From Candidatus Uhrbacteria bacterium (lineage in GTDB: Bacteria > Patescibacteriota > Patescibacteriia > UBA9934 > GWF2-40-263), in contig JAPLZK010000002.1 in assembly GCA_026395055.1 (NCBI GenBank), positions 56,940-120,939 of the forward strand: 64,000 bases of DNA, written 5' to 3'. The notes below the pieces were generated by a model. It was not told the origin of the DNA. It ran no database searches and worked only from the letters and a program-made list of their open reading frames with translations. Of the stretch, positions 20,898 to 30,441 are shown one piece after another. Position 1 is the stretch's first letter. Every line of letters begins with the position of its first letter. The translations under genes and the position numbers were made by a program.

Positions 20898-21959
20898 ATG
20901 CACGCAGGCATGACGGTCAATGGATTGACAATCGGTGTTCATCGACCACGGAAAGATCCACGTCGCGGACGTGTACTTGCCGCGAGAGCACCACAAGGTG
21001 TGCATAACATTGCGGACTACAAAGATATGCCGCAAGGTTGGCCGCGTGCGCAAGGTCCAAACGAGTTGTCGTGTTTTGTGGGGGTCACAGATGAACATGA
21101 GATGTGGTTTGATGTGCGTCCGCTGAATCAGCATTCGCATTACGCTGCTGTGGTCGTGATCGTTCAGCGCGTGAATGCGCTGACCGCTCGCACAGCGGAT
21201 CACGTCTATCTCGAGAAATACGTAGACACGTGTCCGAAGCATGAGACTCTATTCGAGGCAGAACGCTTTTGCCCGGAATGCAAGTTCAAGTGGCCGGCAC
21301 AAAACTACATCACCAATGCGGGCGGTGCAGATTCGGAGAGGCAGTTCTGGCTTGATGGTTGGCGTAGCCAAGACGGTGAGATTCGCCAGTTCGTCTTTGC
21401 GGACGTGGAAAAGGGTCTTGGCGTTGCACAGCAGTTGATTGGCGAAGAGCGCACGGCGGACATTCGCTTCGCGATATTCCTTTCGAAGGAACCGAAGCCT
21501 GTTCCGCCGCGCTTGCAAGCTGCACGTCGTGGCGGGGGAGATATTGTCGATTGTTATTTGGGTGACAATACGAAGGGTGGCGGCTTTTTGGGTCACGCTC
21601 TGAATAGTCCCGTGTTCGGCGCAAAGGTTGATTCAAGCTCGCAAACGCGTTCCTTGAACATGATGGCGACGCTTGGTGCTTCCAGTTTGGGTGATGAGGA
21701 CGCGTCGTTCTTGCAAGGAAACGATCCAAGGACGATCGGTGCTCCGGTGAAGCAGGAGGTTTCCTTTGGTCGCGCGGTGGACCAGAAGATTCATCCGGAT
21801 CCGCATGACATTGGCTTCTGGCAGGACGAACCCGCTGCGGTCATCATGCTCACGCCAGCACCTGCGGCTTGGGTTGAGACCGTGACGCGCAATGGCGCGA
21901 CGGTTGATCGCACGCTTGGCGGTATGGGGCCGCTCGCGGGATTGAAGGGCGTTGGCTAA
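20898..21959 (+). CDS. hypothetical protein with CxxC...CPEC zinc-ribbon-like motif
   Basis: 353 aa; AGAGG SD; GC-rich codon usage; terminator 21972-21997 downstream. Confidence 0.4.
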   Translation: MHAGMTVNGLTIGVHRPRKDPRRGRVLAARAPQGVHNIADYKDMPQGWPRAQGPNELSCFVGVTDEHEMWFDVRPLNQHSHYAAVVVIVQRVNALTARTADHVYLEKYVDTCPKHETLFEAERFCPECKFKWPAQNYITNAGGADSERQFWLDGWRSQDGEIRQFVFADVEKGLGVAQQLIGEERTADIRFAIFLSKEPKPVPPRLQAARRGGGDIVDCYLGDNTKGGGFLGHALNSPVFGAKVDSSSQTRSLNMMATLGASSLGDEDASFLQGNDPRTIGAPVKQEVSFGRAVDQKIHPDPHDIGFWQDEPAAVIMLTPAPAAWVETVTRNGATVDRTLGGMGPLAGLKGVG

Positions 21960-22047
21960 GACGGGACTCTTGAAAGCTGAAAGGCTTTCTTTTTTTTGGA
22001 GGGGCAAGGGATTAGTAGCTAACTGGCTTACTAACCCCTAACCCCTC

Positions 22048-22084
22048 TTGACGTTTCTTTAGTATGTGTATAACCTACACTTAG
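22048..22084 (+). promoter_or_regulatory. promoter/operator block copy 1 (TTGACG-N17-TAACCT with embedded GTGTA..TACAC inverted repeat)
   Basis: TTTAGTATGTGTATAACCTACACTTAGT near-identical to 23671-23698. Confidence 0.5.
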
Positions 22085-22270
22085 TGGCACATGTCGCCCG
22101 GAAAACGGACGGGAAACGCTTGACATAATCCGGATCCGCGACTAGGGTGCTGTATTGTTCTTTCTTGCTGGCGAATGGCTTTGAGAAGATTCTGTGAATC
22201 TTTTGAAAGCCGTTCGTCATCAGGGTGTTCCTGAAGTTGCCGTGCGGTGGTTCTCACAAGGAGTATTTCC

Positions 22271-27891: not shown

Positions 27892-29277
27892 ATGACTCGA
27901 CATGCTCATCTTGTCGTTGATCTTTCAAACGGGGATGCAGGAAAAGGAACGATCGTGGATGCGCTCGTGCGGAAGTATCGTGCGCATACCGTGATTCGAT
28001 TCAATGGCGGTGCGCAAGCGGCGCATCGTGTTGTGACCGGTGACGGTCGCGAACATATTTTTTCCCAATTCGGTTCAGGAACATTTGTTCCGGGTGTGCG
28101 CACTGTGCTTTCGAAGTACGTGCTCGTTCAGCCGTGGGCGCTTGTTCCGGAAGCGGAGCATCTCGAAGAGCTCGGCATTACGGATGCCTTTGATCGATTG
28201 TTTATTCATGAAGACGCACTCATCATCACACCATTTCATCGAGCGGCAAATCGCTTGCGTGAACGTGCGCGTGCAAAATGGGATGGTCGACATGGGAGTT
28301 GCGGAATCGGCGTTGGCGAGACGGCACATGATGCGCTCACGCTCAAGGAATCGCTCGTGGTTCGCGTGCGTGACTTGCGTGATCTGGGTGCGTTGAAAGA
28401 AAAACTGCAACGCGTGCAAAAACAAAAAGCGTTTCATGTTGATGCGATGATGTTTCAACTGATCGACGATCCAGAAGCCTCCGTAGACATTATCGAACTC
28501 GAAGATCCGGAAGCGGCAACATCTTGGATCAAGCAGCTCGAAGCGGTGCTACCGAAACTGAATATCATTGATGACACATGGTTTGCATCTCTCTTGAACG
28601 AACCAGGTCACATCGTGTTTGAAGGTGCACAAGGTGTGCTCATTGATGAGTCACGCGGATTTCATCCGTACACCACGTGGTCGAATTGTACATTTCAAAA
28701 CGCGCTCGACTTGCTCGCAAACTACGATGGAGAGATTCATAAGATCGGAGTTGTCCGAGCGTATGCGACGCGCCATGGTCCTGGTCCGTTTGTGACGGAA
28801 GATGTTCATCTCACAGAACGTCTGCCGGACGCATGTAATAAAATGGATCCATGGCAGCGTGGATTTCGCGTCGGCCACTTCGATTGCACCTCTACTCGAT
28901 ATGCGATCTCGGCTTGTGACGGCATCGACTCGCTTGCGATTACATGTCTCGACCGCTTGCGCGATGAGCCTGCGTGGAAGATCTGCACATATTATGAACT
29001 TGCTCCAGAAGATGAAGAAAGCACGTTGTTCTATGTTGTGAAGACGTTTCGAGGTTTTCGCCTCTGGATGGACCCTGGACCGTTCCAAGACCTTATATAC
29101 CAAGAGCGACTCACGCACGCACTCGAGCGCGCGAAGCCCGTGCTTCACATTACAACCACGTCAGGAACGTTCGATGAACGCGTCGAACACCATGTCCGCG
29201 AGATTACACAAGAACTCAACGTTCCTGTCTCGATCCTTTCGTTCGGTCCAACAGCAGAAGATAAGAAATTTCTCTAG
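27892..29277 (+). CDS. adenylosuccinate synthetase (PurA) family paralog, divergent
   Basis: NGDAGKGT (cf. GDEGKGK), GGAQAAH (cf. GGHNAGH), FEGAQGVLID, RAYATRHGPGPF; catalytic Asp13/His41 equivalents retained, several substrate residues changed. Confidence 0.7.
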   Translation: MTRHAHLVVDLSNGDAGKGTIVDALVRKYRAHTVIRFNGGAQAAHRVVTGDGREHIFSQFGSGTFVPGVRTVLSKYVLVQPWALVPEAEHLEELGITDAFDRLFIHEDALIITPFHRAANRLRERARAKWDGRHGSCGIGVGETAHDALTLKESLVVRVRDLRDLGALKEKLQRVQKQKAFHVDAMMFQLIDDPEASVDIIELEDPEAATSWIKQLEAVLPKLNIIDDTWFASLLNEPGHIVFEGAQGVLIDESRGFHPYTTWSNCTFQNALDLLANYDGEIHKIGVVRAYATRHGPGPFVTEDVHLTERLPDACNKMDPWQRGFRVGHFDCTSTRYAISACDGIDSLAITCLDRLRDEPAWKICTYYELAPEDEESTLFYVVKTFRGFRLWMDPGPFQDLIYQERLTHALERAKPVLHITTTSGTFDERVEHHVREITQELNVPVSILSFGPTAEDKKFL

Positions 29278-29301
29278 ATGCGAATGATTCGCATCTTTTT
29301 T
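29277..29301 (+). terminator. intrinsic terminator after PurA-like gene
   Basis: GATGCGAATGATTCGCATC + T6. Confidence 0.65.
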
Positions 29302-29451
29302 GTTGGCCAAGAACCCCCTCCTTATCAAGGAGGGGGCAGGGGGTGGTCGGGTATCAACCTTGACCTAATCGCCATATTCTGGTAGGCTTCCGCTCGTTGT
29401 GTGTGGAGTGTCTGTGCACAATATGTTTCTCAAACACAAGGGTAAACGTCC

Positions 29452-30441
29452 ATGTCAAACAAGATCGGTTCGCAACTCGTTCAGGCCATTTTGGCCATGC
29501 AGAAAGATCCGTCCAAGCTCGCGGTTGAGCTCAAGGTTCATGTCTTTCCGTGTCCGCATAGTGACAATGCGCATCATATGCACTTCAAGGTGACGTCTCC
29601 GTTCGTTGAGGACCAAACGTTGGCTCAGCAGATCGAAGCGAACCTGATGATGGCGGCGATGACGCAAGAGTTCATGCCTGTGAAGGGCAATTACGATTTC
29701 ACCCAGAGTCTCATCAGTGGCACCAAGTGTACCAATGAAGAGGTGTCCGATGCCGACACGGTTCAGTTCCTGCAGAATGCGGGGATCGTGAAGGCGTTGT
29801 TTGATCTGACGGTCGCCCTGCGAGATGCTTTTGCCGAGTGGCCGAGCGAACTCAGCACGGAGCATGTGCTTTCGGCTGGGTATTCGACCCAGACGCGCAA
29901 GAAGCTTTATCATGGCACGGACACCGATCCGATCAAGGTCGAGGTCGTGAGCATGCGCAAGATTGCACTCGATCAGACAAAGCGTGCACTGATGTCTCTG
30001 TTCGCTCCCAATTTCGCGAAGAGCGAACGTGTCGAGCAGAACAAAGTGATCACGCTCATTGCGTTCAACGACGTGAATCCCTGTTCGCCCGTCGTGCGCC
30101 AAGCGTACGCGGCATACGCGCAGGAGATGCTCGACAACAAGCTCGAGCCGAAGATCGCTCCGAAGATCGTGGAGCGCGTGCAGTTGGCACTCGACACGCT
30201 TGCGACGCGCCTTGCGAAGCAGCAAGCCACGAAGCTGAATGAGACCACCACGAATCCGACGCAGACGGCGGTCGGTACGGAGGATGGCATCGGCACGGAA
30301 GTCGGTGACGGCGCGACGAAGACGACGAACGTCCCGCAGGCTCTGTCTGGTGGGGTTGGTCCTGGTTCGTCCGAAGTTTCCTTCAATCCTTCGTCCGCTG
30401 GCCACGACAGCAATGGTCAGTCGACTGGCGCTACGGCGTAA
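29452..30441 (+). CDS. hypothetical protein with low-complexity Gly/Thr-rich C-terminus
   Basis: 329-aa ORF, GC-rich; no motif recognised. Confidence 0.4.
   Translation: MSNKIGSQLVQAILAMQKDPSKLAVELKVHVFPCPHSDNAHHMHFKVTSPFVEDQTLAQQIEANLMMAAMTQEFMPVKGNYDFTQSLISGTKCTNEEVSDADTVQFLQNAGIVKALFDLTVALRDAFAEWPSELSTEHVLSAGYSTQTRKKLYHGTDTDPIKVEVVSMRKIALDQTKRALMSLFAPNFAKSERVEQNKVITLIAFNDVNPCSPVVRQAYAAYAQEMLDNKLEPKIAPKIVERVQLALDTLATRLAKQQATKLNETTTNPTQTAVGTEDGIGTEVGDGATKTTNVPQALSGGVGPGSSEVSFNPSSAGHDSNGQSTGATA

Follow-up and report, generated by a model that had tools for sequence, protein, structure and literature searches.

The window analysed here is the whole stretch of 64,000 nucleotides taken from contig JAPLZK010000002.1 of a Candidatus Uhrbacteria bacterium (assembly GCA_026395055.1), a segment of bacterial chromosome with genes for GyrA, FtsH, S1, SMC, a type II/IV secretion ATPase and VanW. 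Between ribE-ribH and a thioredoxin reductase (TrxR)-like gene, it carries seven contiguous and co-directional open reading frames (ORFs), A to G, all on the + strand, which the initial annotation had described as an island of GC-rich codon usage resembling an uncharacterised signalling or conflict module. All seven ORFs are present and their G+C content (0.51-0.615) is indeed above that of the flanking genes (0.43-0.47), a shift also seen in two related genomes. The seven genes are not one unit, and the conserved cassette is very probably smaller, being made of C, D and F, which encode a kinase-fold protein, a vWA protein with a metal ion-dependent adhesion site (MIDAS) and a divergent PurA-family ligase, respectively. 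The window holds the long form of this cassette, composed of B, a long C, the tandem genes D and E, and F. The features of the island are the following:

20898-21959, + strand: gene A, 353 aa, a CxxH/CxxC protein (CPKH...CPEC) whose membership is uncertain
22271-23614, + strand: gene B, starting at ATG, 447 aa, with a small N-terminal helical domain, an Ala/Pro linker and a helical domain of ~270 aa
23894-25537, + strand: gene C, 547 aa, zinc ribbon and kinase fold, 100% identical to gene call P0121
24173-24256, + strand: zinc ribbon of C, CDECGEF...CPFC, translation checked
24674-25537, + strand: kinase-like domain of C, with HGALTPGH at 25112-25135 and LDL replacing DFG
25538-25688, + strand: leader of D, with a hairpin and T-run (25541-25575), a conserved stretch and AGGAG
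25689-26636, + strand: gene D, 315-aa vWA/MIDAS protein, N-terminus MGGGFYDY, MIDAS motif DVTKS
26637-26819, + strand: leader of E, second copy of the leader, with a hairpin (26649-26678)
26820-27794, + strand: gene E, 324-aa vWA paralogue starting from MGSGGWDH, MIDAS motif DITQS
27892-29277, + strand: gene F, 461-aa divergent PurA-family ligase
29452-30441, + strand: gene G, 329 aa, whose membership is uncertain

In an identical public contig, the genes were called at 447, 547, 315, 358, 461 and 329 aa. The closest extended relative is another Candidatus Uhrbacteria genome (loci L028 and L090), which keeps the gene order with 46-65% protein identity.

The PHROG matches of C, D, E and F led to a locus of mycobacteriophage Catera in which gp249 (kinase), gp250 (the D homologue), gp251 and gp252 (PurA-like) are adjacent. 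A Vibrio phage and a Rhizobium phage similarly encode a D homologue directly upstream of a PurA-like gene. Homologues ~50% identical to D are found in many bacterial phyla, and Leptospira, Ideonella and a 3-Mb metagenome-assembled genome (MAG) present successively a kinase-like gene of ~318 aa, a D-like gene of ~325 aa and a PurA-like gene of ~450 aa. Residues 283-570 of C, numbered on the 571-aa ORF 23822-25537, are homologous both to the ~320-aa gene located upstream of the bacterial vWA gene and to Catera gp249. A scan of one genome per species recovered 510 matching stretches, and C, D and F stood in this order on one strand in 60 of the 79 best of them, the others being mostly contigs too short to hold all three genes. 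According to record titles, the bacterial loci come from at least nine phyla and include Myxococcota, several classes of Pseudomonadota, Planctomycetota, Verrucomicrobiota, Acidobacteriota, Spirochaetota, Fibrobacterota, Patescibacteria and candidate phyla.

The cassette is also present in viruses, since 340 viral contigs of IMG/VR, many of them of 100-675 kb, encode a relative of D. Among the 80 best of these loci, the D and F homologues are adjacent in 76 and a kinase-fold gene is found in 33. In cultured phages, the kinase-fold gene was identified in 203 records, all of mycobacteriophages (cluster C relatives of Catera), the vWA gene in 219 and the PurA-like gene in 242, and the triad is carried by about 200 cluster C mycobacteriophages. 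Gene linkage is far beyond chance. Since the phage modules that lack the kinase still keep both other genes, the vWA protein and the PurA-like ligase are the invariant core, and the kinase-fold protein is a frequent third member. When the neighbours of 63 bacterial loci were clustered, no further gene family recurred across phyla, and only genus-level synteny was seen, in Myxococcus. The searchable literature, limited to open-access papers, yielded no account of this gene combination, and none of the PADLOC (2023) models corresponds to D, E or F. The initial view of an uncharacterised module therefore holds for the kinase-like, vWA and PurA-like genes and not for the island as a whole, as A and G are limited to one lineage. 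The cassette, so far undescribed, is a widespread association of a vWA protein, a PurA-like ligase and a predicted pseudokinase, present here in a long and duplicated form.

In 38 kinase-less IMG/VR loci, a conserved coiled-coil protein of ~115 aa is encoded directly upstream of the vWA gene (for instance L124:7633-7998 and L108:7597-8001). It presents the motif GAFxxSLKRNNKQIRxDRA...NMLDLSPTNAQSL...RYxYLFG, belongs to no PHROG or Pfam family, and appeared unrelated to B and C when compared with them by hhalign.

The two vWA paralogs with DxTxS motifs reported initially were recovered, D and E being 45.5% identical. Pfam VWA models do not detect either protein and a profile search of the D family against PDB sequences returned nothing; D does belong to PHROG 2971 (1.5e-38). 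The AlphaFold (AF2) model of D was obtained with a predicted local distance difference test (pLDDT) score of 93.7, and a Foldseek search of the PDB with this model ranked integrin beta I-like domains and further domains of vWA type first (E 1.5e-6, prob 1.0). On this predicted structure, D is a member of the vWA/MIDAS superfamily with a Rossmann-like fold and a DxSxS...T...D site. The MIDAS is formed by D63, T65, S67 and D175; across 40 sequences D63, S67 and D175 are invariant and T65 nearly so. Protein E, ~40% identical to orthologues elsewhere, has every invariant column of the vWA family alignment, and extra vWA copies recur in other genomes.

Gene E is a tandem duplicate of D, and the duplication took in the upstream leader of ~110 nt with its hairpin. 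Indeed, the leaders of D and E are homologous, with ~75% mean column identity, which is above the expectation from 45% protein identity, and the hairpin stem shows differences on both strands that are consistent with compensatory changes. In D, the leader includes a hairpin of 15 bp, and the Shine-Dalgarno sequence AGGAG lies 7 nt before the ATG. The leader may be a cis-regulatory element or result from gene conversion. Both genes most likely start at an ATG (25689 for D, 26820 for E) and not at the start of the longest ORF. An exact look-up of the D protein from its TTG start found nothing. The 358-aa version of E proposed by the gene caller begins at 26718, and the start at 26820 is preferred because the nucleotide conservation of the leader ignores the frame of that call. 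The reading frame of the conserved leader stretch TCATGAATCTG differs from one copy to the other.

The N-terminus of the vWA proteins is nearly invariant. Among 120 gene-called homologues, 119 have [M/V/L]-G-x-G-x-[Y/W]-[S/D/T]-x-x-A-H at their very start, the first residue being Met in 114, and the 65 viral homologues all combine an MG start with an aromatic residue at position 6. The same start is shared by D and E of the window and by the vWA proteins of the Vibrio and Rhizobium phages. In the D model, the residues of this motif form an exposed coil, and after removal of Met the vWA protein is predicted to expose a near-invariant free N-terminal glycine. In Catera gp250 (L001 7995-9050; NC_008207 149980-151035), the motif is found as MGSGAWDS from residue 13 onwards, so that the annotated start is probably 12 codons too early. 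As a separate observation, just before the vWA gene, the Vibrio phage (L002 6216-6935) and the Rhizobium phage (L003 5777-6568) both encode a protein very rich in Met, Gly and Gln, with runs like MMMMQQMMGGMG. A short MTAGMMGMQGMNMG stretch is also present in protein B.

Protein F was correctly assigned to the PurA family, as it matches the Pfam model PF00709 (Adenylsucc_synt, 2.3e-66) and aligns over its full length with Escherichia coli PurA (EC 6.3.4.4). Its scores nevertheless fall far below the cut-offs of the models for characterised members, with 179.1 bits against 402 for NCBIfam PurA (NF002223), 155.7 against 395.55 for TIGR00184 and 49.8 against 300 for PurZ (NF038379). Residues were counted in 70 bacterial-plus-phage and 73 viral sequences and are given in E. 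coli PurA numbering. Like PurA, the F family has the P-loop GDxGKG, with Gly12, Asp13 and Lys16 essentially invariant, as are His41, Gln224 and the guanine-specifying Asp333. Unlike in PurA, the following positions are changed in the F family:

Asn38: Gln
Thr129: Cys
Arg131: Val
Arg143: not conserved, Leu in the window
Ser240: Trp or Arg
Val273: His, in 69/70 and 73/73 sequences
Thr300: aromatic, Trp in the window
Thr301: Gln, in 69/70 and 72/73 sequences
Arg303: variable, Gly in the window
Arg304: deleted
Arg305: Phe

We take Val273, Thr300, Thr301, Arg303 and Arg305 to be the L-aspartate site, as known from mutagenesis and crystal structures of E. coli PurA, and Thr129 and Arg143' presumably contact the 5'-phosphate of inosine monophosphate (IMP). 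The F family is thus predicted to keep the residues needed to bind GTP and to phosphorylate the 6-oxo group of a purine, while the family as a whole appears to have replaced the L-aspartate pocket and some of the 5'-phosphate site. Judged from these residues and from the model scores, F is neither a PurA nor a PurZ, and it is probably not an adenylosuccinate synthetase.

An ordinary role in purine salvage would make F a second adenylosuccinate synthetase, supplying AMP, for instance to the reduced metabolism of a member of the candidate phyla radiation (CPR) or to the nucleotide pools raised by a phage, with neighbours that are unrelated to it. The full-length PurA domain, the intact GTP-binding and catalytic residues, and the annotation of F-type proteins as PurA-like synthetases by SEA-PHAGES and PHROG would all agree with such a role. 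We consider it very unlikely, given the low NCBIfam score, the alteration of all four Asp-pocket positions in more than 140 sequences and the strict linkage to the vWA gene. Moreover, a canonical PurA can occur in the same genome, as in one Myxococcaceae MAG where the F-type paralogue lies 7 kb away from a PurA matching that of E. coli at 15 of 15 key sites.

Even further from the evidence is a PurZ-like module making 2-aminoadenine (Z) for DNA, an explanation to which we give hardly any credence. PurZ, the phage N6-succino-2-amino-2'-deoxyadenylate synthase, resembles F in that it is a PurA paralogue carried by phages whose use of substrates has changed. F moreover falls in PHROG 1211 together with proteins annotated as '2-aminooxy adenylosuccinate synthetase', a PurZ-type annotation, and the module is found in phages. 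However, PurZ still uses aspartate, whereas the Asp pocket of F is rebuilt, and it travels with DatZ and MazZ, whereas no DatZ-, MazZ- or DpoZ-like neighbour was seen in the window or in the Catera, Vibrio phage and Rhizobium phage loci. PurZ also has a Ser, Ser14, at the position of Asp13 of PurA (bioRxiv 10.1101/2025.10.22.683976), whereas the Asp is kept in all members of the F family.

The translation of C confirmed the zinc ribbon CDECGEF...CPFC, the loop HGALTPGHM, which begins at 25112 and has HGA where HRD is expected, and the DLA (within LDLA) that takes the place of DFG. The four Cys of the ribbon are invariant in 22 long-form homologues, and the short bacterial forms present a shorter N-terminal ribbon, CxxCGG...CxYC. 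C matches PHROG 3043 'kinase' (8e-14) and stays below threshold with the Pfam kinase model (12.6 bits against a cut-off of 23.1); several of its homologues carry a precomputed PF00069 match. Among 68 members of the kinase-fold family, the beta3 Lys is kept in 64 and the alphaC Glu in 61. The position of the HRD Asp is Ala in 49 and Asp in 11, that of the catalytic Asn is His in 65, and that of the DFG Asp is Gly in 59 and Asp in 8. Three His are conserved in the motif H-G-A-x-x-P-x-H-x-L-V-H. Because the catalytic Asp is missing in most members, the alignment points to a predicted nucleotide-binding pseudokinase, or an enzyme of atypical chemistry, and not to a conventional Ser/Thr kinase. In high-GC genomes such as that of L084, long ORFs in which C appeared fused with STAND or kinase domains were discarded as probable artefacts of stop-to-stop read-through.

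The initial annotation had likened this kinase and vWA pairing to the TerY-P triad, which is said to associate a TerY vWA protein, a Ser/Thr kinase and a PP2C phosphatase, was reportedly described by Anantharaman, Iyer and Aravind, and was later reportedly shown to be antiphage. In a phospho-signalling defence triad of this kind, the kinase would phosphorylate the vWA protein or a target and the ligase would be the effector. Both systems do place a vWA/MIDAS gene beside a kinase-fold gene in a small, patchily distributed cassette, here including phages; C has a weak PADLOC match to PD-T4-6 (2.6e-5), and the seventh residue of the vWA proteins varies between Ser and Asp. However, the kinase fold is degenerate, with the replacements by Ala and Gly described above, and dispensable, being missing from many phage modules, whereas the PurA-family ligase is obligate. 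The vWA proteins are of another family (PHROG 2971), D and E having no match to TerY or other vWA models, nor any in PADLOC at E <= 0.1, and the neighbours of the bacterial loci show no clear defence-island enrichment. The absence of PP2C observed initially was confirmed, with none in A to H by Pfam and none recurring among the 63 bacterial loci. The likeness was thus not borne out, and phospho-signalling of the TerY-P type appears very improbable.

Other systems recall the cassette in outline. PrkA(YeaG)-YeaH-SpoVR(YcgB) associates a kinase-related protein, a vWA protein (YeaH/DUF444) and a third, enzyme-like protein, and its function is poorly understood. The cassette is likewise a three-gene unit pairing such proteins. 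On the other hand, C is devoid of the AAA+/PrkA architecture, no PrkA or SpoVR match was found with Pfam and NCBIfam, and the match of D to the YeaH model PRK05325 is not significant (E 0.093). In MoxR-vWA, CbbQ-CbbO and NorQ-NorD, a protein hydrolysing nucleoside triphosphates (NTPs) works with a MIDAS-vWA partner that docks on an acidic residue of the client. The cassette similarly pairs a nucleotide-using protein with a MIDAS-vWA protein, but its NTP user is a PurA-fold ligase with purine-activating residues and not an AAA+ remodeller. Pseudokinase and vWA domains are also combined in the plant tandem kinase-pseudokinase-vWA immune receptors Lr9 and Pm57 (PMC10260399, PMC11153570), an analogy only, as these are eukaryotic fusion proteins acting in immunity without a ligase and the cassette is not homologous to them.

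Among the accessory genes, B always adjoins the long form of C (~545 aa), co-oriented or divergent, in Patescibacteria, Myxococcales, Gammaproteobacteria and 'Eisenbacteria', and since it accompanies the long C across phyla, it belongs to the long-form variant. B has no match in Pfam, PDB, PADLOC, NCBIfam or PHROG, 13 of its homologues also gave none in Pfam, and a profile search of the B family against PDB sequences returned nothing. Its AF2 model is all-alpha, of moderate confidence (pLDDT 65.8), and has no fold match (best Foldseek E 0.45). An exhaustive HMMER search with the B profile recovered 274 representatives in 1.84 billion proteins, all standalone and with no informative fusions. 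The possibility, raised initially, that this 447-aa protein hides a phosphatase found no support, and the model rules out an obvious PP2C or other enzyme fold.

Genes A and G have no family match in Pfam, NCBIfam, PHROG or PADLOC. Their orthologues were found only in the Uhrbacteria relative (61% identity for A and 57% for G), where an upstream gene (U1), ribE-ribH, A, B, C, D, F, G, rubrerythrin and TrmB are all syntenic. Another CPR contig (L089) presents the order ribE-ribH-B-C-D-F-MOSC, without A or G and with MOSC at the position of G. The membership of A and G is thus unproven. Differences from the L090 orthologue are distributed by codon position as 75/63/155 in A, indicating a real gene, and as 100/85/151 on the + strand in G, which argues that G codes on this strand and that its antisense ORF does not. 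The latter, in phase with G and of Arg/Leu-rich composition, seems to be a shadow ORF. In L090, the gene caller picked the antisense ORF instead of G. Long antisense ORFs fully overlap G (29455-30405), B (22220-23254) and E (26862-27815), all on the - strand. G had been described as a low-complexity protein, which is true of its last ~60 residues and not of the remainder.

Within ~15 nt 3' of every island gene, a G+C-rich hairpin is followed by a T-run. Over window positions 20819-31594, 36 terminator-like sites were observed against 19.2 +/- 4 expected, and the island hairpins are located at:

20819-20847
21972-21989
23628-23650
25541-25575
26649-26678
27807-27825
29276-29296
30456-30477
31569-31594

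As a hairpin with a T-run closes each gene, transcription or attenuation of the island may proceed gene by gene, in contrast to other bacteria, where the cassette genes overlap.

A prophage remnant was considered for the window and rejected, since genes for phage structural proteins or integrases are missing from the flanks of the island and related CPR genomes keep the region in synteny. A megablast of the island against phage genomes gave no match. Rfam identified three tRNAs over the whole window and nothing else. The TrxR-like flavoprotein H (30557-31561, +) scores 147 bits against the thioredoxin reductase cut-off of 343, presents by eye GVTYGELPDN where the redox-active CxxC is expected, and is absent at this position in the Uhrbacteria relative. 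Upstream of ribE-ribH, the window encodes a 330-aa protein (18733-19725, +) without family match, and that relative has in the corresponding place an orthologue with 46% identity. Four tandem ORFs of 338, 338, 327 and 372 aa (33518-37939, -) adjoin tRNA-Glu (33329-33403), and the two that were checked both encode WD40 beta-propellers. A 917-aa protein (38007-40760, -) ends in an AAA domain, whereas its first ~640 residues have no Pfam match; its gene lies in another stretch of raised G+C, at 38-42 kb, and one more such stretch is located at 1-8 kb.

How the members of the cassette might act together can be proposed from the residues described above. We tentatively favour, at somewhat less than even confidence, a self-contained cassette in which F would couple a GTP-activated purine to an amine other than aspartate, with the vWA glycine as a candidate acceptor and the pseudokinase as a regulator. 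With GTP, F would activate a purine nucleotide, possibly other than plain IMP, at its 6-oxo group and would join it to this amine without making adenylosuccinate. The alpha-amine of the vWA N-terminal Gly is an acceptor candidate, because an amine ligase without aspartate pocket has as obligate partner a protein with an invariant terminal amine; the vWA protein would then be a substrate or a carrier. The pseudokinase, having kept the ATP-binding Lys and Glu and lost the catalytic Asp, would serve as a nucleotide-binding regulator or reader, and the MIDAS would be the site at which an acidic residue, belonging to a partner or to a target, is docked. Taken by itself, the choice of this glycine as acceptor is unlikely. 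The most specific version is improbable: F would be a protein ligase of bacteria and large phages forming an N6-type C-N bond between a purine nucleotide and the vWA N-terminal glycine, and this tag ("N-terminal purinylation") would be read by the pseudokinase.

Several points weigh against the self-contained ligase cassette and the conflict-related role that may be attached to it. The substrates proposed for F are deduced from residue substitutions at positions taken as Asp and IMP-phosphate contacts, and the vWA N-terminal Gly might instead serve the structure of the protein or bind a metal. Some kinase-fold proteins may be active, as the catalytic Asp is kept in 11 of the 68 members and long forms keep the Asp of the DFG position. 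PADLOC returned only scattered matches among 125 bacterial neighbour ORFs, with no clear enrichment in defence genes, which speaks against a classical defence island. Finally, the cassette is vertically stable within Myxococcus and the Uhrbacteria relatives, and a housekeeping or stress function therefore fits as well as conflict.

The neighbourhood of the phage modules has a flavour of RNA or nucleotide repair, though a weak one. It includes NAD salvage genes in the Rhizobium phage, ribonucleotide reductase in the Vibrio phage, as well as Thg1, RecA/UvsX and IMPDH/GMP reductase. TROVE/Ro60 is present in 13 viral loci, and HAD_SAK_2 and R2K ATP-grasp genes flank the triad in 7. Genes of RNA-repair type, namely HAD_SAK_2, R2K ATP-grasp, TROVE/Ro60 and Thg1, were noticed next to or near phage modules in L147 and L161-L168 (IMG/VR), L002 (11353-12861) and L151 (6862-8631).

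Such neighbours bear on another explanation, in which the product of F would be a free purine nucleotide, substituted at N6 with an amine other than aspartate, and no protein would be modified. This product could act in signalling or as an antimetabolite, or could be converted to a modified nucleotide, and the vWA protein and pseudokinase would regulate or localise F. The same residues of F argue for this small-molecule product, as does the position of phage copies among genes for ribonucleotide reductase, nicotinamide mononucleotide (NMN) adenylyltransferase, TROVE/Ro60, Thg1, HAD_SAK, R2K ATP-grasp and IMPDH/GMP reductase. Other PurA paralogues, namely PurZ and ToyG of toyocamycin synthesis, are moreover known to have altered substrates. 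A small-molecule product leaves unexplained, however, why even minimal phage modules have as obligate partner a vWA protein whose N-terminal Gly is invariant, and no gene for a PurB-like lyase, a nucleotidase or a polymerase recurs with the cassette. We regard a free product as possible but doubtful.

Whatever its chemistry, the patchy distribution of the cassette and its presence in hundreds of large phages suggest an accessory and conflict-related role. This role would probably be played in phage-host conflict or in the response to nucleotide or RNA damage.

If the inference is true, an unrecognised enzyme system would be encoded in 510 genome stretches, 340 uncultivated viral contigs and about 200 cultured mycobacteriophages. 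A large and sharply defined sister clade of the textbook enzyme PurA, with its amine pocket rebuilt and a vWA protein as obligate partner, implies new chemistry, be it a new nucleotide or a new protein modification, and N-terminal purinylation, if true, would represent a new kind of covalent nucleotide tag. Tractable carriers are available, including cluster C phages such as Bxz1 and Catera, which grow on M. smegmatis, and isolates of Myxococcus, Leptospira and Ideonella. These results also correct the annotations "serine/threonine kinase" and "adenylosuccinate synthetase" currently attached to genes of the cassette.

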